Of a stretch of DNA of 64,000 nt, positions 3,093-32,050 are shown piece by piece. The position numbers were made by a program, and so were the translations under genes. The stretch's first letter is position 1, and each line of letters opens with the position of its first letter. Source of the DNA: Actinomycetota bacterium (GTDB lineage: Bacteria > Actinomycetota > Actinomycetes > S36-B12 > UBA10799); the NCBI GenBank assembly GCA_020637055.1, contig JACJWR010000001.1, forward strand, positions 101,237 through 165,236, written 5' to 3'. The notes under the pieces were generated by a model. The model made no database searches. It worked only from the letters and a program-made list of their open reading frames with translations, and was not told the DNA's origin.

Positions 3093-4091
3093 TCACCGCC
3101 GTCGGCCGGACGCACCGTTGCGGCGTCGGGCGTTGGTGAACTTCGGGGCGGGCAGTTGCAGTTCGGCAGCCCGGCTCAGAAGGAACCCTTCCGTCACCGC
3201 CATGACGTCGTCGAGTGCGGTGAACACGTCCGAGACGGCGAACCGCATGAGCACCAGCGGCAACAGTTGGATGTCGTTGTGCCGACGCAGATCGGGCACG
3301 AAAGCCTCGGCTTTCGCATGCACGCTGCGGCCGTCGATCTCGTAGCCGAGGCGGTAGTCGTCGAACAGGCCGTCCATGTATCTGTTGCCGTTTCGGGTGG
3401 TCACCTGCACGTTGAGTTTCGGCCGCGGCAGCCCACGTTGGACTGCCGCACGCCAGTAGGCCGCCTCACCACCGGACGCGGCACCGGCCTCGAGTTCCTC
3501 GACCACGAGGCGCAACGCCTCGGCGCCCCCGCGCGGCGGGCGTTTCGCCGCCTGGAGTTGGCCCGGGGAAGTCAGGTTCTTGCGCACGGCATCGGCGGCG
3601 ATGCAGCGAAGGTCGTTGAGACACACCTGATCGGCGAGGTCCACCACCGTGGCCGCCACGGTAGACAGCCAAAGACCTCCGACGAAGTCACGGGGTGTCG
3701 ACCGGCGGTTGCGGTGCAGCTGGACGAGGGGGTGGCGCCGCCGCGTCGCGCCGTGCGGAATCGTGACGTCCAGGGGGTCACCGGGTCTGGGGGTCGGCAA
3801 CAGCCCGTGCAGTCCGGCAGCAGTGCGGTGTGAGAGGTGCGCCTCCTCGCCCGCGCAAAGCAGCCCGCACCGCAGCCAGCCATGGATCTGGTTCGACGCG
3901 CCAGTCGCGTCGATCACTCCGGGTAGCGGTTCCCACCAGCGCCCGGTGGCCAGTCGCCGCCGCAACCAGCCTGCGTGTACACCCGCGGCGAGCAAATCGC
4001 GACGGCGAGCAAGGCCATCACTGAGCACACCTTCGGCGATGGCGGCGGACGACACGCCCGCCACGGTGCCCGGTGCGACGTGACCGGCCAA
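3093..4091 (-). CDS. AbiEi_4-like N-terminal / DUF559 endonuclease-like C-terminal domain protein
   Basis: N-terminus GVLSDGLARRRDLLAAGVHAGWLRRRLATGRWWEPLPGV; C-terminus YRLGYEIDGRSVHA...RRHNDIQLLPLVLMRFAVSDV, resembling DUF559/Vsr-fold proteins common in actinobacteria. The ORF-track start is a TTG; GTG at 4064 is an alternative. Confidence 0.6.
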   Translation of the reverse strand: MAGHVAPGTVAGVSSAAIAEGVLSDGLARRRDLLAAGVHAGWLRRRLATGRWWEPLPGVIDATGASNQIHGWLRCGLLCAGEEAHLSHRTAAGLHGLLPTPRPGDPLDVTIPHGATRRRHPLVQLHRNRRSTPRDFVGGLWLSTVAATVVDLADQVCLNDLRCIAADAVRKNLTSPGQLQAAKRPPRGGAEALRLVVEELEAGAASGGEAAYWRAAVQRGLPRPKLNVQVTTRNGNRYMDGLFDDYRLGYEIDGRSVHAKAEAFVPDLRRHNDIQLLPLVLMRFAVSDVFTALDDVMAVTEGFLLSRAAELQLPAPKFTNARRRNGASGRRR

Positions 4092-5404: not shown

Positions 5405-7366
5405 TCAACCCCGGGCGTAGATCACGAATTGTTCGCCGTTCCACACCCCGCGGTCGAGTTCGGTCAGACAACTCGTGCCCGCCAGCGGGACCGAAGAGAT
5501 GACACGGTCGACGGCGAACTCGTCGAGCACCGGAGCGCAAGGGTCCAAAGTGATCACGATGTCGTCCGGGGCGATGGCGGTGATGACCGGCTGCTCCACT
5601 CCGGGCACCCACTCGAACGACACTTTCGACACCGCGCGGTTCCACTGCTCGGAGTACTCACCCTGCGGATCCAGCACCCGCCATCGATCCGACGGCCCCG
5701 CCCACTGTTCGCCCGACAAGGCCGGTACCCCGTTGGCGATGAGCAGCGAACTCAGGCTCGGCGAATCCACCGCGAACAGGCCCCCGGATCCTTCCGGCTC
5801 GGAGGCCAGCACCGCCGCCGCGGCCTCCGAGCCGCGCAGTGGGGCGAGTCCCTTCTGCACCGGGTTCACCGAATAGACGATGAGGCCCGAGCCGATGATC
5901 GCGGCGGCGAATCCGAGACTCAGCCAGACCGGTTTGCCGCCGGCAAACAACAGCAGGATCGCCGTGGTGACCACGGTGATCACCACGATCGTGCTGGTGG
6001 TGAGTTCAGCCACCAAGACCTCGGCCATGTTGCGACCCGCGAGGTAGAGCACCACGGCACTGGTCACGGCCACTATCCCTGCCAAGACCCACCCGAGCCG
6101 GACACCGAGCAGCGGGGCGATCGCGAGCACCACCACCAGACCCCAGATGGCGGCCATCCGGGTCGGCGGCACGAGGTTGAGCAGCGGCACCGCCTCGCCG
6201 AGCGCGACCGGCCAGTCGATCAGGAACCACGAGAACCCAACGGCCAGCAGCAACCCGGTGAGCACCACGCGCACACGCCAGCCTTTGCCGTTCGCCCGCC
6301 ATCCGGCCACGGCCAGCGCCAGCCACAACACGCCCGCGATCGTCCAACTACCCGACCATTCGGTGGGGTTGTCCACCAGGTAGGCGGGGCTGGTCTGGAA
6401 GATGCCGTCGAACGGGGCACCGAAGGAGCGGCCGAGTGCGACGAACTCACCGGCCACCCGCCGTTGGCCCGGATAGGTGGTTTCCGACAAGGCGGTGAAG
6501 GCGGCGTCGTTGAGCAGGATCAGACCCAGCGTGACGGCGGCCGCGACCACCGCGCTCGCGACGGCGACGATCGCGATCCGCAGCGCGTCCGCCTTGCTGC
6601 GGATCACGAAGATCAACGTGAGCGCGAGGACCGCTCCGGTGAGCGGCAGCGACCAGGGGGCGTAACTCCACGGCACCCTGGCCAGGGCGACCCCGGCGAC
6701 CACGGCGAGTCCGACGGTGCCCAGGATCCGCGCCCACCGGCCGCTCAGCCGCATCGCCAGCACCCAGCAGGCGGCCGCGACCACCCCGGGCAAGATCGCC
6801 GAGAAGGGCCGCAGCGACCACCAGGCGACGACCGGGGTGAGTGTGAACACTGCGGTGAGGCCGAACGCGACGCCGAACCGCGCCCCCCAGGCCATCAGCA
6901 GATACGGCAACAGCAGCAGCACCACCGCCACCGGGAACCAGAACCCGGCGGCGAACAGCGGCCCGTCGGGCAGCCATCGGCCCAGGTACTGCACACCCAT
7001 CTCGCCGAATACCGCACTCTCCAGCCACACCCCGGCATCCGCGGGCACCGTCGAGGTGACGAACGGGTCGTTGGTGAGCGGTGTGGTGAAGTCCGCGTCG
7101 CCGGCCGTCTGCACACCGAGCATCAGCGGCGTGACCCGGGCGTATTCGTCGGATCGAAGCGGTTCGGCCTGCCCGACCAGGATTCCCGATTCGACCGTCG
7201 GCTCGGAGACGTAGGTGCCCATCGACGACACCGTCACGCCCGCCAACGAGAGCACCAGCCACCCCACCAGCACCGCCACCCACCAGGCGCGCAGCAGCGC
7301 GAGGTCCTTGCCTCGATACCGTGGGGTCGCGGCAGCGTCCCGGGTGTCGATCCCAGCGGCGCTCAT
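5405..7366 (-). CDS. Polytopic membrane protein, GT-C-like candidate (654 aa)
   Basis: Start moved to ATG 7366-7364 (MSAAGIDTRD...), which overlaps the upstream stop as ATGA; the ORF-track N-terminal 190 aa are Arg/Pro-rich out-of-frame shadow. About 13 hydrophobic segments by eye, acidic first loop PLRSDEYARVTP, soluble C-terminal ~150 aa. Confidence 0.75.
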   Translation of the reverse strand: MSAAGIDTRDAAATPRYRGKDLALLRAWWVAVLVGWLVLSLAGVTVSSMGTYVSEPTVESGILVGQAEPLRSDEYARVTPLMLGVQTAGDADFTTPLTNDPFVTSTVPADAGVWLESAVFGEMGVQYLGRWLPDGPLFAAGFWFPVAVVLLLLPYLLMAWGARFGVAFGLTAVFTLTPVVAWWSLRPFSAILPGVVAAACWVLAMRLSGRWARILGTVGLAVVAGVALARVPWSYAPWSLPLTGAVLALTLIFVIRSKADALRIAIVAVASAVVAAAVTLGLILLNDAAFTALSETTYPGQRRVAGEFVALGRSFGAPFDGIFQTSPAYLVDNPTEWSGSWTIAGVLWLALAVAGWRANGKGWRVRVVLTGLLLAVGFSWFLIDWPVALGEAVPLLNLVPPTRMAAIWGLVVVLAIAPLLGVRLGWVLAGIVAVTSAVVLYLAGRNMAEVLVAELTTSTIVVITVVTTAILLLFAGGKPVWLSLGFAAAIIGSGLIVYSVNPVQKGLAPLRGSEAAAAVLASEPEGSGGLFAVDSPSLSSLLIANGVPALSGEQWAGPSDRWRVLDPQGEYSEQWNRAVSKVSFEWVPGVEQPVITAIAPDDIVITLDPCAPVLDEFAVDRVISSVPLAGTSCLTELDRGVWNGEQFVIYARG

Positions 7367-8358
7367 GGCATCCGCCGGGATTCGCGGCGACCCGGACACA
7401 ACCGACCGTGGCGCTGCTCCAAGATTCGGTGCACGGCGGAGAGCGGTTGCCGGCGGCGGCGCCAGACGTCGGCGACCACCGCAGCCCCATCGGGGGTCCA
7501 GGCCAGGGTGTGGGTGCCCAGCGCATCGGCGCTCAGGTCGGTGCCTTCGATTCGGCGGCGCACCTCGCCCGGGCCCGGGACGGCCGGGTCCCAAGTCACC
7601 AGGGAGGTGGCGACCCCGTAGTTCTCGGAGCAATCCTGCGTGCTGCGAAGACCGCGCGTGAGGTCGAGGTTCCCCGCCGGACGCGCGAGCACGGCGTCGC
7701 GGAATCGGACCTCGGGCTGTTCGATCCAGCCGACACCTTCCGGCGCGACCCACTGGCGGAACCCGGCGAACTCGTCCGAGCCGCTGGTGCCGGTGAGGTA
7801 CCAGTCCTGCCCGCCGTGGGGATCGAGCAGCGTCGTCGGATCGTCCTCGTCGGGCACCACGACCGGCGTGGGTCCGGGCGGCGGGATCGCGATCGCCGGA
7901 TCGATCACGCCGACCGGCAGGGTCCGCAGCGAGGCGATCCACGGCTCACCGACGGCGGTGAAGGTGTAGGTCGGGGCGGCCGGGTCGCACGATTCCACGG
8001 TGGCCACCCACGTCCCGTCGTTGAGGTGCACCTGCGGGAAGGAGAAATGGTGGGAACTCGCCAGCACCGTGCGGCGGGTGACCACCTGACCGGTCTCGGA
8101 GACCCGCAACGCCACTATGCGGCCCAATCCACGCCAACGGAGGTACTCCTCCACGAAGATCCACAGGTCGCCGGCGGCATCCCGGACCGGGAACGGGTCG
8201 GCCCAGAATCGGTCCCGCTCGGGAGCAGCGAGGAAAGCTCCGCCGGGCGGAGCGCCGTCGAGGAGGTCGTCGAGGGTGGGCGCGAGCACGACCACAGCCC
8301 ACGCCCGCTCCTGGGTGACACCGCGGATCAGCCGGCTCACGCCGTCCGCGCCGGTCAT
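7363..8358 (-). CDS. GINT1_N-like (glucosamine inositolphosphorylceramide transferase N-terminal-like / GH43-like beta-propeller) protein of unknown function
   Basis: FWADPFPVRDAAGDLWIFVEEY, HHFSFPQV, ARPAGNLDLTRGLRSTQDCSENYG resemble the motifs I recall for this family. Start ATG 8358-8356 overlaps the GT4 stop (ATGA). Confidence 0.6.
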   Translation of the reverse strand: MTGADGVSRLIRGVTQERAWAVVVLAPTLDDLLDGAPPGGAFLAAPERDRFWADPFPVRDAAGDLWIFVEEYLRWRGLGRIVALRVSETGQVVTRRTVLASSHHFSFPQVHLNDGTWVATVESCDPAAPTYTFTAVGEPWIASLRTLPVGVIDPAIAIPPPGPTPVVVPDEDDPTTLLDPHGGQDWYLTGTSGSDEFAGFRQWVAPEGVGWIEQPEVRFRDAVLARPAGNLDLTRGLRSTQDCSENYGVATSLVTWDPAVPGPGEVRRRIEGTDLSADALGTHTLAWTPDGAAVVADVWRRRRQPLSAVHRILEQRHGRLCPGRRESRRMP

Positions 8359-9564: not shown

Positions 9565-10176
9565 TTACCCGGCCTCGCCGGCGAGACCGGCGCGGAACGC
9601 CCGGCAGGCCTCGTAGTCCGGCAGCAGACCCGCGGCCGCCGCCTCCGCCAGGCTGGGCGCCGCATCGTCCTTCGCCGACAACGAGCACTCACCGAGGTCG
9701 AACGGCCAGGCGATACCGATCTCGGAGTCGAACGGGTAAATCTCCCGCTCGCCGGTGGGGTTGTAGGGCTCGCTGCAGAGGTAGGCGACCGTGGAACCGT
9801 CTTCGAGTGCTGCGAATCCGTGTCCGAGGCCTTCGGAGAGGTACACCGCGCGCCGGTCCTTGGTGTCGAGCAGCACGGTCTCCCACATGCCGTAGGTGGG
9901 CGATCCGACGCGGATGTCGACGATCACATCCACCACCGCGCCTGCCAGGCAGGTGACGTACTTCGCCTGACCCGGCGGGACGTCGGCGTAGTGGATGCCG
10001 CGGACCGTGCCCTTGGTCGACACCGAGCAGTTGGCCTGGGCGAGGTGCAGCGGGTGCCCGACTGCCTCGACGAAGGTCTCCTCCTTGAACCACTCGAGGA
10101 ACAACCCGCGCGGGTCGCCGTGCTGCTTCGGGGTGACGACCCAGGCGCCTTCGATACTCAACGGGGTGATCTCCAT
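9565..10176 (-). CDS. rmlC: dTDP-4-dehydrorhamnose 3,5-epimerase
   Basis: DPRGLFLEWF, RGIHYADVPPGQAKYVTC, YLSEGLGHGF cupin motifs. Confidence 0.93.
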   Translation of the reverse strand: MEITPLSIEGAWVVTPKQHGDPRGLFLEWFKEETFVEAVGHPLHLAQANCSVSTKGTVRGIHYADVPPGQAKYVTCLAGAVVDVIVDIRVGSPTYGMWETVLLDTKDRRAVYLSEGLGHGFAALEDGSTVAYLCSEPYNPTGEREIYPFDSEIGIAWPFDLGECSLSAKDDAAPSLAEAAAAGLLPDYEACRAFRAGLAGEAG

Positions 10177-10182
10177 AGCCCA

Positions 10183-10188
10183 ACGCTA
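10183..10188 (-). promoter_or_regulatory. -10-like TAGCGT 6 nt upstream of rmlC ATG (leaderless candidate)
   Basis: Minus strand reads cccgaTAGCGTtgggctATG; no RBS-like purine tract. Confidence 0.4.
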
Positions 10189-10221
10189 TCGGGCGCCGAT
10201 GCATCGAATCGGAGTTCCCCC

Positions 10222-10333
10222 GGCCCACTGCGGTGGCGATGGCCCCGCTTGGCTGGGGCGACCGACAGTGGGCACCTGCGGGCTGCTTGTTTGCCTTCAC
10301 GCCGGCGCGGGGCCATCGCCACCTCCGTGGGCC
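10222..10333 (+). repeat. Long-loop hairpin element, copy A
   Basis: Perfect 17-bp arms GGTGGCGATGGCCCCGC (10232-10248) / GCGGGGCCATCGCCACC (10307-10323), outer 7-bp GGCCCAC/GTGGGCC across a 3x3 bubble, 58-nt core 10249-10306. Confidence 0.8.
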
Positions 10334-10378
10334 TTGCTCCAGCGGGCGCCACCTCGGCGGGCTCGGGTCTGGCGGACC

Positions 10379-10496
10379 GTGCCGGGGGAGTAGGGGGCCG
10401 GCGCCGACGTAAAGGCGAAAAGCGCACGCCGCAGCTGCCCACGGACGAACGCCCCAGTCAAGCCGGCCCCCTACTCCCCCGGCACCACCGTGGGCC
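10379..10496 (-). repeat. Long-loop hairpin element, copy B (inverted relative to A)
   Basis: Perfect 24-bp arms GTGCCGGGGGAGTAGGGGGCCGGC (10379-10402) / reverse complement (10462-10485). The 59-nt core, reverse-complemented, matches the core of A at about 45 of 59 aligned positions by eye. Shares a GGCCCACGGNGGTG-type flank. Confidence 0.8.
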
Positions 10497-10511
10497 CCTG
10501 CCGCCCAGGCA

Positions 10512-10528
10512 CCGCCCGAGGCGGGCGG
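10512..10528 (-). terminator. Small GC stem-loop abutting the stop of the priming transferase gene
   Basis: CCGCCC (10512-10517) pairs with GGGCGG (10523-10528), 5-nt loop, 1 nt from stop 10530-10532. Confidence 0.35.
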
Positions 10529-10529
10529 G

Positions 10530-11942
10530 TCAGTAGGCGCCGCGGCCGGTGATCACGGCCTTGAGGGTCCGCAGCACGATGATCGCGTCCAGCGGCAACG
10601 ACCAGTTCTCGACGTAGTAGAGGTCGAGCATCACCGACTGCTCCCAGTCGAGATCCGACCTGCCCGAGACTTGCCACAGGCCGGTCATGCCAGGTTTCGC
10701 CAGCAGTCGCCGGGTCGCCACATCGTCGTAGCGCTGCACGTCGTCGAGCGGGTGCGGCCGCGGACCGATCAGGCTCATCTGGCCCCACCAGACGTTGAAC
10801 AGCTGTGGCAACTCGTCCAGCGAGAAGCGCCGCAACCAGTGGCCCACCCCGGTGACGCGAGGGTCGCGGGTCATCTTGAACGTCGCGCCGGAGCCGCCGT
10901 GTTCGGCCCGCAACTCCTCTCGCCGGGAATCGGCGTCGACGACCATGGTGCGGAACTTGAAGCACTCGAAGGTGGTGCCGCCGGCCCCGGCCCGGGTCTG
11001 CATGAAGAACACCGGACCCGGGCTGGTCAGTTTGATCAGCGCCGCGAAGATCCCCAACGGAATCGCCAGGGCGATCAACAGCAGCGACGAGCCGATCAAG
11101 TCGATGGCGCGTTTGATGACTCGGGCCGGCCCGGAGAACTTGGGCATCTCGACCCGCACCAGGGCCATCCCGTTGATCGGTTCGATACTGAGCCGCGGTC
11201 CGGCGATGTTCGCGATCTGCGGACTCACCAACAGGGAAAGGTCCTGATCCTCCATCGCCCAGCCGAGCCGTCGGGGCCAGGCTGGATCCTCGTGCTGTGC
11301 GGGGGCGTAGACGATGGTGTCGGCGTCGAGGTCGAGAGCGGCCTTCACCACGACCACCGGATCCGGATCTGGCGCGTCGGTGAGATCCCAACTGCCGACC
11401 TGCTCCATCAGCCCGCCGGACCGGGCGAACTGCTTCTCAAGCTGGGGGTACTGCGCCTGCGCTGCCACTACGAACACCCGATGCAGCGGATCGCCGCGCT
11501 GCAACCTGCGGTGCAGCACATTGCGCATCAGGGATCGATCCGCGAGCAGGAAGAGCGTCCCGACCACGGCGCTGAAGAACAGGTATCGCCTGCCGAACTG
11601 GGTTCCGGTGATGTAGGCCAGTGACATCGTCAGCGCCACGGTCCACAGACTCGCCAGCAGGACACGCCGATACTCCTCGGCACCACCGCCGAGGATCGTG
11701 GTCGCGCGGGTCTGCATCTGCCACAACATCAACGGCCACAAGACCATCAGCGACACGATCATGAACATCCGCGGGCCGTCGCTGGCCGGGCCCTCGTGGC
11801 CGATGTCGAGCACAACTCCCAGCCCCAGGGCCAGCGCGATCGCCACCAAGTCGGCCACCACGACGAGGCGGGAGTGGTTGCGCTCCTCGAGCACCACTCG
11901 GGCACGACCCACCAGATCTTGGGCGCGGCTGTTGAAGCTCAT
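10530..11942 (-). CDS. Polyprenyl glycosylphosphotransferase (WbaP/exopolysaccharide priming sugar transferase)
   Basis: C-terminal LIGPRPHPL...KPGMTGLWQVSGRSDL bacterial sugar-transferase domain, N-terminal TM helices. Start ATG 11942 (MSFNSRAQDL), 19 nt after the UXS stop; the ORF-track 63-aa extension overlaps UXS out of frame. Confidence 0.9.
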   Translation of the reverse strand: MSFNSRAQDLVGRARVVLEERNHSRLVVVADLVAIALALGLGVVLDIGHEGPASDGPRMFMIVSLMVLWPLMLWQMQTRATTILGGGAEEYRRVLLASLWTVALTMSLAYITGTQFGRRYLFFSAVVGTLFLLADRSLMRNVLHRRLQRGDPLHRVFVVAAQAQYPQLEKQFARSGGLMEQVGSWDLTDAPDPDPVVVVKAALDLDADTIVYAPAQHEDPAWPRRLGWAMEDQDLSLLVSPQIANIAGPRLSIEPINGMALVRVEMPKFSGPARVIKRAIDLIGSSLLLIALAIPLGIFAALIKLTSPGPVFFMQTRAGAGGTTFECFKFRTMVVDADSRREELRAEHGGSGATFKMTRDPRVTGVGHWLRRFSLDELPQLFNVWWGQMSLIGPRPHPLDDVQRYDDVATRRLLAKPGMTGLWQVSGRSDLDWEQSVMLDLYYVENWSLPLDAIIVLRTLKAVITGRGAY

Positions 11943-31851: not shown

Positions 31852-31864
31852 GGGGTCTCCCGGC

Positions 31865-31900
31865 ACCGGCGTCCCCGGTACCGGCGTCCCCGGTACCGGC
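31865..31900 (+). repeat. 15-nt tandem repeat ACCGGCGTCCCCGGT x2.4
   Basis: Exact units at 31865-31879 and 31880-31894, partial 31895-31900; each unit is itself a 5-bp/5-nt hairpin; junctions form CCGGTACCGG. Confidence 0.85.
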
Positions 31901-31904
31901 CTGC

Positions 31905-31992
31905 GGTGGTGGGGTGTGGTGGGGCCTCTTCCGTGGGTGGGCGGGGTGCGGGTCCGTGGGTTTTTCTGACGGCCCCACCACACCCCACCACC
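31905..31992 (+). repeat. Long-loop hairpin element, copy C
   Basis: Perfect 22-bp arms GGTGGTGGGGTGTGGTGGGGCC (31905-31926) / GGCCCCACCACACCCCACCACC (31971-31992), 44-nt core. The core shares TCCGTGGG, GCGGNGTGCG, TTTTC and ACGGC blocks with cores A/B. Confidence 0.75.
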
Positions 31993-32011
31993 TCCGGTCG
32001 GAAGCAGGGCG

Positions 32012-32037
32012 GTGGGTTTTCTGACGGCCCCACCACC
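32012..32037 (+). repeat. Partial duplicate of the 3' part of copy C
   Basis: GTGGGTTTTCTGACGGCCCCACCAC repeats 31956-31981 with one T fewer. Confidence 0.75.
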
Positions 32038-32050
32038 TGCGGGCGGGGGG

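Follow-up and report, generated by a model that had tools for sequence, protein, structure and literature searches.

Palindromic repeats with conserved loops and freely changing stems between the genes of an uncultured Actinomycetota clade

We analysed a stretch of 64,000 nucleotides (hereafter the window) from the chromosome of an Actinomycetota bacterium, in which three long hairpin-forming units, A, B and C, are located between genes. A and B share the 353-nt gap between a transferase gene and rmlC, and C lies between the convergent genes clpC and an HhH-GPD glycosylase gene. The flanking priming transferase has 100% identity with a protein from the MAG of an uncultured 'Actinomycetota bacterium'. 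The window is part of the core chromosome rather than a mobile island. Its genes include those of the rhamnose pathway, glycosyltransferases, radA, clpC, ftsH, tilS and folB/folK, and no transposase, integrase, Y1 enzyme or RAYT was found among the 30 window open reading frames (ORFs) scanned. We show here that all three units belong to a palindromic repeat family, not described before, of a narrow, uncultured Actinomycetota clade. Much is known of dispersed palindromic repeats in Proteobacteria; in Actinomycetota they have barely been studied and, to our knowledge, in uncultured lineages not at all.

The features of the transferase-rmlC gap that concern the two units are as follows (L140 is a sister locus described below):

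10222..10333, + strand: element A, of the A/B subfamily; the sense (G/T-rich) loop strand is the + strand.
10249..10306, + strand: core (loop) of A, 58 nt; 84% identity with the orthologous core in L140 and 76% with core B.
10334..10378, no strand assigned: spacer between A and B; positions 10347-10375 are a diverged tandem copy (72%) of the 3'-terminal 29 nt of A (CGCCACCTC..).
10371..10496, - strand: element B, of the A/B subfamily; its sense strand is the - strand, which also encodes the transferase and rmlC.
10403..10461, - strand: core (loop) of B, 59 nt; 81% identity with the orthologous core in L140.

An initial annotation of this DNA had described A and B as long-loop hairpins and listed C as a further copy, and the coordinates, stem lengths and core sizes that it gave all hold on re-reading. 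The arms of A (10222-10248 / 10307-10333) are 27 nt long and 93% complementary according to the repeat finder. They consist of a perfect 17-bp inner stem (10232-10248 / 10307-10323) and a 7-bp outer pair (10222-10228 / 10327-10333), with a 3x3 internal loop, TGC/TCC, between the two. B has 24-bp arms that are 100% complementary (10379-10402 / 10462-10485); one of its termini carries an intact GGCCCACGGTGG motif (10485-10496, - strand), and the other end, at 10371-10378, is degenerate. The cores of A and B are inverted copies of one another, with 78% identity over 46 nt in the repeat finder and, as had been estimated, matches in 45 of the 59 columns of a global alignment of core A with the reverse complement of core B. 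The two units form a tail-to-tail doublet (-> <-) in the gap between the transferase gene and rmlC, which are co-directional. A is antisense to the sole transcription unit around it. The 286-nt A/B region folds more stably than shuffled sequence on either strand (z = -6.3 on the + strand, -5.6 on the - strand), with no significant folding in the A-B spacer. The initial annotation had also read the complementarity of the two cores as a mutually exclusive long-range pairing, which we do not retain: such complementarity is automatic for inverted homologues, and the minimum-free-energy fold keeps both local hairpins. Covariance models were built for the A/B type (R1) and the C type (R2) and were run over the window and all related loci; with R1, A scores 106.9 bits and B 123.7 bits, and their RNA folds reach -82.4 and -90.9 kcal/mol, respectively.

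The third unit and its partial copy occupy the gap between clpC and the glycosylase gene:

31898..31999, + strand: element C, of the C subfamily; terminal motifs CTGCGGTGG and CCACCTCCG; R2 score 106.7 bits.
32007..32040, + strand: C', a truncated direct copy of the 3' part of C, GGTGGG-TTTTCTGAC-GGCCCCACCACC; motif hit at 32013-32025.

The arms of C are a perfect 22-bp pair (31905-31926 / 31971-31992) around a 44-nt loop (31927-31970), and they contain a 10-nt tandem duplication that is mirrored in the two arms (GTGGTGGGGT x1.9 / CCCCACCACA x1.9). C' has the unduplicated 12-nt arm and folds as a mini-hairpin. The C-type units have in common the innermost stem GGGCC/GGCCC, a loop that starts with TCYTCCG and a loop that ends with G(G/C)GTTTTTCTGAC, and they vary in the middle of the loop and in the middle of the arm. 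The loop of C also holds a perfect canonical G-quadruplex motif, GGGTGGGCGGGGTGCGGG (31934-31956); the L142 orthologue lacks it, and it is therefore probably incidental. Directly upstream of C, beginning just past the end of the glycosylase ORF (31851), there is a 15-nt tandem repeat of CCCGGTACCGGCGTC (x2.8, 96% matches; 31859-31900). C had been proposed as a third copy of the A/B element. It has the same architecture but does not belong to the same subfamily: C reaches only 18 bits with the A/B-type model and B 15 bits with the C-type model, with the same orientation inferred both ways. Given these low cross-scores we treat A/B and C as two subfamilies that share one architecture.

Taken over the family, units measure ~90-125 bp and consist of perfect stems of 13-24 bp around an asymmetric, G/T-rich centre of 44-59 nt, the inverted repeat being strictly Watson-Crick. 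Conservation is seen at the termini (CTGC-GGTGG ... CCACC-TCCG or GGCCCAC), in the innermost stem pairs and at both ends of the loop, which read TTGRCTGGGGCG ... TTTGCCTTYACGYCKGC in A/B and TCYTCCG ... GTTTTTCTGAC in C; every loop has T[T/C/G]AC at its 3' end. Both the arms and the loop drift in their middle parts. At the flanks, A and C read CTGC-GGTGG and CCACC-TCCG and B reads GGCCCAC-GGTGG; the outer-arm flank CTGC / TCCG is common to A and C, which share the motifs CTGCGGTGG and CCACCTCCG, and GGCCCAC is common to A and B. It had been claimed that the arms of different units share almost no sequence although each pair is flawless. The pairs are indeed perfect or nearly so, but the arms are not wholly unrelated, as in all of them the 5' arm is rich in G, the innermost part reads GGCC..GC and the outer part GGTGG/CCACC.

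The layout of A, in which an outer pair, a 3x3 internal loop and an inner stem of variable sequence follow one another, recalls integron attC sites, which are recognised as folded single strands and likewise combine variable sequence with conserved structure and paired boxes with an unpaired spacer. That the units are attC-like or other site-specific recombination sites is nevertheless highly improbable. The outer boxes (GGCCCAC/GTGGGCC) contain no GTTRRRY/RYYYAAC box, there is no integrase among the 30 window ORFs scanned, neighbouring units stand in opposite orientations among housekeeping genes, and the terminal loop, variable in attC, is here the conserved part. None of the conserved R boxes, variable terminal loop, uniform orientation, cassettes and integrase that characterise attC sites is seen here.

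No other long-loop inverted repeat in the window is as long as A, B or C. In 708 kb of unrelated high-GC bacterial DNA there were only two perfect stems of 17 bp or more that enclose a 35-70-nt loop, which corresponds to ~0.18 expected per 64 kb compared with the 3 observed in the window. The same intergenic A/B sequence was recovered in 6 independent Logan assemblies and is therefore not an assembly artefact. A coding reading was rejected, since stop codons occur in the units and their indels, with lengths not divisible by three, break the frame; intrastrand triplex repeats, which have a different motif, were rejected as well. The initial annotation had recognised no Rfam family in the units, and Rfam gave 0 matches in the window at gathering thresholds; by E-value only generic microRNA-precursor hairpins matched, at 8-28 bits against thresholds of 37-168.

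Searches for further members were similarly negative. R1 and R2 detected no copies in the window and the related loci beyond eight (3 in the window and 5 in three sister loci), and terminal-motif searches in the window gave nothing besides A, B, C and their partial copies. In the genome collection a strict core pattern had 0 matches, and the two-termini pattern CTGCGGTGGYG..CRCCACCTCCG had at least 119, of which those listed were all chance matches with a longest stem of 10 bp; the loci matched were reused as a negative control. A relaxed core pattern matched 5 times in the JGI metagenomes, each time by chance, within coding DNA and without a hairpin. In viral contigs (IMG/VR, L153-L202) the 19-nt A/B-core-end pattern matched 50 times, never in a hairpin context; most of these matches are one conserved coding stretch in a related phage group, and they are chance matches amplified by the redundancy of the collection. 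The C-loop-end pattern had 8 matches in viral contigs, counted by pattern alone.

Comparison with relatives shows that the same gaps exist with and without units. The transferases of L014/L015, L016/L017, L018 and L019 are 74-89% identical to that of the window, and their gap up to rmlC spans 49-118 nt and is free of elements, whereas in L140 (rmlC ~91-92% identical) the gap is 745 nt long and holds B' (6581-6693) and A' (6940-7049) in the order and orientation seen in the window, together with tandem repeats and a second palindromic family. The gap between clpC and the glycosylase gene varies in a similar manner:

Window (reference): 199 nt, with C and the truncated C'.
L142 (clpC 99% identical): 446 nt, with the orthologous C.
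L143 (clpC 98% identical): 809 nt, with the orthologous C2 and an extra inverted copy, C1.
L144 (clpC 96% identical): 1 nt, empty.

The units are placed just after stop codons, between co-directional or convergent genes, and every doublet has the arrangement -> <- (A/B in the window, B'/A' in L140, C1/C2 in L143). These comparisons show apparent gains of units within this clade, at safe sites after stop codons, and intergenic regions of 1-118 nt are inflated by them to 200-800 nt. The initial annotation had opposed a selected fold to a transposon-like repeat. That opposition is false. The elements are missing from the same sites in close relatives, and they show two orientations, doublets, shared termini and a pile-up with other repeats, which is how repetitive extragenic palindromic (REP) sequences, bacterial interspersed mosaic elements (BIMEs) and miniature inverted-repeat transposable elements (MITEs) behave.

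The empty sites also bear on the idea that the ~58-nt core alone is mobile and was inserted in the loops of pre-existing, unrelated terminator hairpins. Stems that differ around cores that are alike, at positions just after gene ends, would be expected under such a scenario. However, the empty sites in relatives lack long hairpins of this kind, conserved terminal motifs lie outside the arms, and the arms of orthologous copies have diverged although the copies themselves have not moved; the idea is largely refuted and we consider it very improbable.

Once in place, units persist. At four-fold synonymous sites the identity is 50% for the window versus L140 and 57-59% for the clpC of the window versus those of L142, L143 and L144, compared with ~40% estimated for random sequence of this codon composition; neutral sites are thus near saturation, and the intergenic flanks outside the units cannot be aligned. 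The cores are nonetheless 84% (A), 81% (B), 86% (C loop, L142) and 76% (C loop, L143 C2) identical between orthologues, so that the core changes several-fold slower than synonymous sites. Identity is 74% between the C loop and that of L143 C1, and 73-76% between A and B within a genome. Since orthologous cores are more alike than paralogous cores, A and B split earlier than these species and have been conserved in place since then, with no sign of homogenisation between the two.

The arms behave differently. They are 55-86% identical between copies, yet the pairing is kept. Among the stem pairs of the A/B family, 7 of 13 have changed on both sides and 0 on one side only, with 98% of cells paired; in the C family 9 of 17 have changed on both sides and 1 on one side, with 95.6% of cells paired. 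When the partner was slid by 1-3 columns as a control, 38-56% of cells were paired. The pairing of the arms at orthologous loci, which had been named as a check, is thus found, and the conserved loop with a covarying stem is borne out, with orthologous cores at 76-86% identity against 50-59% at four-fold sites. Many of the stem changes are transversions (G-C to C-G, U-A to C-G), and there are almost no G-U or one-sided intermediates. Length changes are mirrored as well: A and A' differ by one base pair that is lost on both arms, and the arms of C (22 bp) and L143 C2 (18 bp) differ in length on both sides. Within the species (L001-L006 compared with window positions 10170-10540) there are four differences in the 353-nt gap, two of which fall in stems and are both uncompensated: a 1-nt deletion in the G-run of a B arm in L003, and a C>T change in an A arm in L006 that gives a G-T pair.

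We consider it rather probable that the family is a lineage-restricted, non-coding and non-autonomous palindromic repeat, similar to REPs/BIMEs or MITEs, whose arms are held complementary by arm-to-arm copying. The first part of this reading is based on presence and absence in relatives, the shared termini, the occurrence in both orientations and in doublets, the position at gene ends, the way units cluster with other repeats and their inability to encode protein. The second part is based on events that are mirrored in both arms (the indels and the 10-nt duplication in C), on double changes of the transversion type and on the scarcity of G-U pairs. Under this reading one arm would be repeatedly copied from the other, such that stems stay perfect, and the likely route would be quasipalindrome correction, in which the replication machinery switches template at the hairpin. 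The removal of unpaired variants by selection may add to the perfection of the stems. Template switching is known to create and to perfect hairpin stems (PMC8794818, PMC5941160), and quasipalindrome correction turns imperfect into perfect inverted repeats through one-step, multi-base compensatory changes of the kind seen here (PMC8794818, PMC5941160, PMC7202029). As a mutational process, however, it leaves the conservation of loop and termini, and the multiplication of units, unexplained.

The loop ends and termini are probably the recognition surface of a protein that spreads or maintains the family, for which an HUH or RAYT-like enzyme acting on single-stranded DNA would be a candidate, although none was seen. 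The strong conservation of the cores in place has two candidate causes. One is continued refreshment from a genome-wide family, as is presumed for species-specific REP consensus sequences. The other is a function in the host, such as a 3'-end barrier, termination or insulation, an RNA processed from the loop, or a hairpin that binds a protein. Transcribed units would form hairpins of -50 to -91 kcal/mol, which would probably act, as REPs do, as barriers at mRNA 3' ends or as terminators.

Selection by the host could also be the whole explanation. The units would then be structured RNAs, elements of 3' untranslated regions in which the stem is a scaffold for processing or stability (an RNase III site or an exonuclease barrier) and the loop is the functional part, acting as a small RNA once released, as a binding site for a protein, or as a signal for termination or insulation, with stems free to covary. 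We regard this as a serious but less than even possibility, on the unlikely side. It would fit the core conservation between unalignable flanks and the strong stem covariation. In the sense orientation, moreover, the A/B core can form a conserved 6-bp helix, GGGGCG/UGCCUU, with three G-U pairs, and one core pair covaries, being G-C in A and A' but A-U in B and B'. The helix and the covarying pair are compatible with the sense strand alone. In all 8 units the sense fold is 0-10.5 kcal/mol more stable than the antisense fold. B, C (with its orthologues) and C1 are in sense orientation directly downstream of a gene end. On the other hand, better folding of a G/T-rich strand is an effect of composition, and A is antisense to the only transcription unit that surrounds it. 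Close relatives with the same genes and the same rmlC -10 box lack the elements, implying that these loci do not need them, and there is neither a canonical terminator or promoter nor an Rfam relative. Selection at the RNA level also does not predict stems with few G-U pairs, or the mirrored indels and duplication. It is for this reason that covariation, which the initial annotation had taken as a signature of selection on a folded RNA or single-stranded DNA, does not by itself demonstrate an RNA function: arm-to-arm copying at the level of DNA explains the stems best.

The repeat-like behaviour set out above is shared in large part with REPs, BIMEs and REPINs. Both groups are non-coding intergenic palindromes downstream of coding regions, between co-directional or convergent genes; in both, close units stand in opposite orientation and cluster with other motifs, no target-site duplication is made, sequence is kept where synonymous sites are saturated, and stable hairpins are expected at mRNA 3' ends (PMC3733652, PMC2817692). 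The differences concern size, design and host. REPs are 20-40 nt long with a short loop, whereas the units described here are 88-125 nt long with an asymmetric, conserved loop of 44-59 nt, and the stem, which is the conserved part of a REP, is here the variable part. REPs of the two superfamilies further carry an unpaired GTAG or CGTC tag at one end, number over 100 per genome and are associated with RAYT transposases. No GTAG or CGTC is present at the ends of the units described here (GTAG was found only in tandem GTGGGCT motifs adjoining A' in L140) and no RAYT was seen. The host phylum, Actinomycetota, is one in which such families have hardly been described.

A more specific proposal is that the units are substrates of a single-stranded DNA enzyme (HUH/Y1, RAYT- or IS200/IS605-like) that reads the hairpin loop ends and the termini, with copies made from a single-stranded hairpin intermediate, so that any stem would be accepted and regenerated perfectly. 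Conservation concentrated at the stem-loop junction and the termini, T[T/C/G]AC at the 3' end of every loop, the missing target-site duplication at A, B and C and the REPIN-like inverted doublets would all suit such an enzyme, as would the REP-like location and dimers (PMC3733652, PMC2817692). We nevertheless think it improbable. Precomputed Pfam lists contain no such gene in the window or in ~150 kb of sister loci, the nearest approach to a GTAG/CGTC tag is CTGC (GCAG on the other strand), and the units are three times longer than REPs. In addition, orthologous copies keep perfect stems without moving, which requires a mechanism that acts in place.

The inverted ends of MITEs are conserved through transposase binding and MITE interiors vary. 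In the present family it is the junction and the loop that are conserved and most of the arm that varies, and no parent insertion sequence is known. Otherwise the units are similar to MITEs such as Correia/NEMIS, ERIC, RUP and BOX, which are ~100-150 bp long, non-autonomous and intergenic, have terminal inverted repeats, are co-transcribed as rod-like hairpins and vary in presence between related genomes (PMC2229807). The flanks of A (..TTCCCCC-A-TTGCTCC..), B (..GGCAGG-B-..) and C (..TACCGGC-C-GGTCGGA..) contain no direct repeat and hence no target-site duplication. The origin hairpins of rolling-circle (HUH Rep) replicons and the RNase III processing stems of rRNA also combine a conserved loop or interior with stems that are free to covary; these are functional sites present once in a replicon or rRNA operon and not dispersed intergenic repeats, and no sequence similarity to them was found.

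Some points weigh against a REP/MITE-like repeat with arm-to-arm copying. The whole sample examined, from 64 kb of the genome and ~75 kb of sister loci, consists of the 3 window copies and 5 in three sister loci, and neither target-site duplication, nor a mobilising enzyme, nor within-species insertion polymorphism was seen in it; we infer mobility only from presence and absence between species whose synonymous sites are near saturation. Long conservation of the core in place would also be expected of a host-selected function. Four of the five independent units are sense-oriented behind a gene 3' end, and the sense-only core helix with its covarying pair gives weak hints of a strand-specific RNA or single-stranded DNA structure. 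A further reading, which we put forward as a doubtful speculation, is a self-templating hairpin element in which the conserved loop and junction are the sole sequence-specific module and the stem is free of sequence requirements. The module might be read by a single-stranded DNA enzyme, or as an RNA freed by a double-strand-specific RNase. If this were true, stems could diversify without limit while remaining perfectly paired, unlike those of REPs and MITEs, with their conserved stems or ends, and unlike attC sites with their conserved boxes and variable loop.

The family inverts the usual pattern of conservation, as the loop is conserved and the stem is free. It offers a natural test case in which compensatory changes in hairpins that arise by selection on paired point mutations can be compared with those that arise by one-step template switching. 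Comparative RNA-motif pipelines would score such a family as strongly covarying, which calls for caution in RNA discovery. Should the loop prove to be a processed RNA or the recognition site of an enzyme, the units would represent a new class of element.

Two further features of the transferase-rmlC gap flank the units:

10183..10188, - strand: -10-like hexamer TAGCGT, 6 nt upstream of the rmlC ATG (10174-10176).
10497..10527, - strand: GC hairpin after the transferase stop, CCGCCCG-CCT-CGGGCGG; z = -1.4, no T-run.

The leaderless-type rmlC promoter noted in the initial annotation was recovered. A TANNNT hexamer (TAGCGT or TACCGT) stands exactly 6 nt upstream of the rmlC ATG in seven loci, which represent six distinct sequences (L014 = L015), and this spacing is kept in the window, L014-L019 and L140, with or without elements and with no evident Shine-Dalgarno sequence. 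This supports a promoter belonging to rmlC itself, whose mRNA is probably leaderless, and the A/B units lie between a gene end and this intact promoter. The hairpin after the transferase gene, which had been called terminator-like, is weak, does not fold significantly better than shuffled sequence (z = -1.4) and has no T-run, and we do not support that description. As for the units themselves, a riboswitch or leader of the flanking genes was rejected, since relatives keep the transferase, rmlC and the -10 box without them. Intrinsic terminators were rejected on account of a consensus scan with 0 sites in 9900-10800, loops of 44-59 nt and the lack of a T-run past the 3' arm; a canonical sigma-70 promoter reading was rejected too.

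Tandem and palindromic repeats of other kinds are found alongside the elements. The same intergenic regions of the sister loci (L140 6780-6925, L142 12630-12770, L143 12935-13300) contain a second repeat family that is unrelated to the first. It has a hairpin, AACGCGGGTCTGGGTCGGG-TTTT...-CCCGAC..GACCCGCGTT, and behind it a tandem array of the 31-nt unit CGCGTTGATCACCCGGGACCCGACCAGGACC, with 8.4 copies in L143; the family has 0 matches in the window. Tandem arrays flank the units in L140 (6457-6590 and 7040-7131) and L143 (12503-12635). One array in L140 consists of 13/34-nt units of CCGGGGCCTGCGC and runs into the outer arm of B'; behind A', L140 has repeated copies of the terminal motif, (C/T)AGTGGGCT. 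In L143, C1 is preceded by 36-nt repeats. It seems that local duplication readily affects the ends of units. A short-read contig of the L140-like lineage (L020, 1850-1870) ends 20 nt past the transferase stop, at GAGCAGGGGCC, which is where the repeat block of L140 starts, indicating that the repeats break assemblies.

Elsewhere in the window, the cell-wall polysaccharide cluster includes a large protein with DUF7657 and DUF7654 (5405-7942, - strand), and a neighbouring ORF (3093-4091) has no Pfam match.

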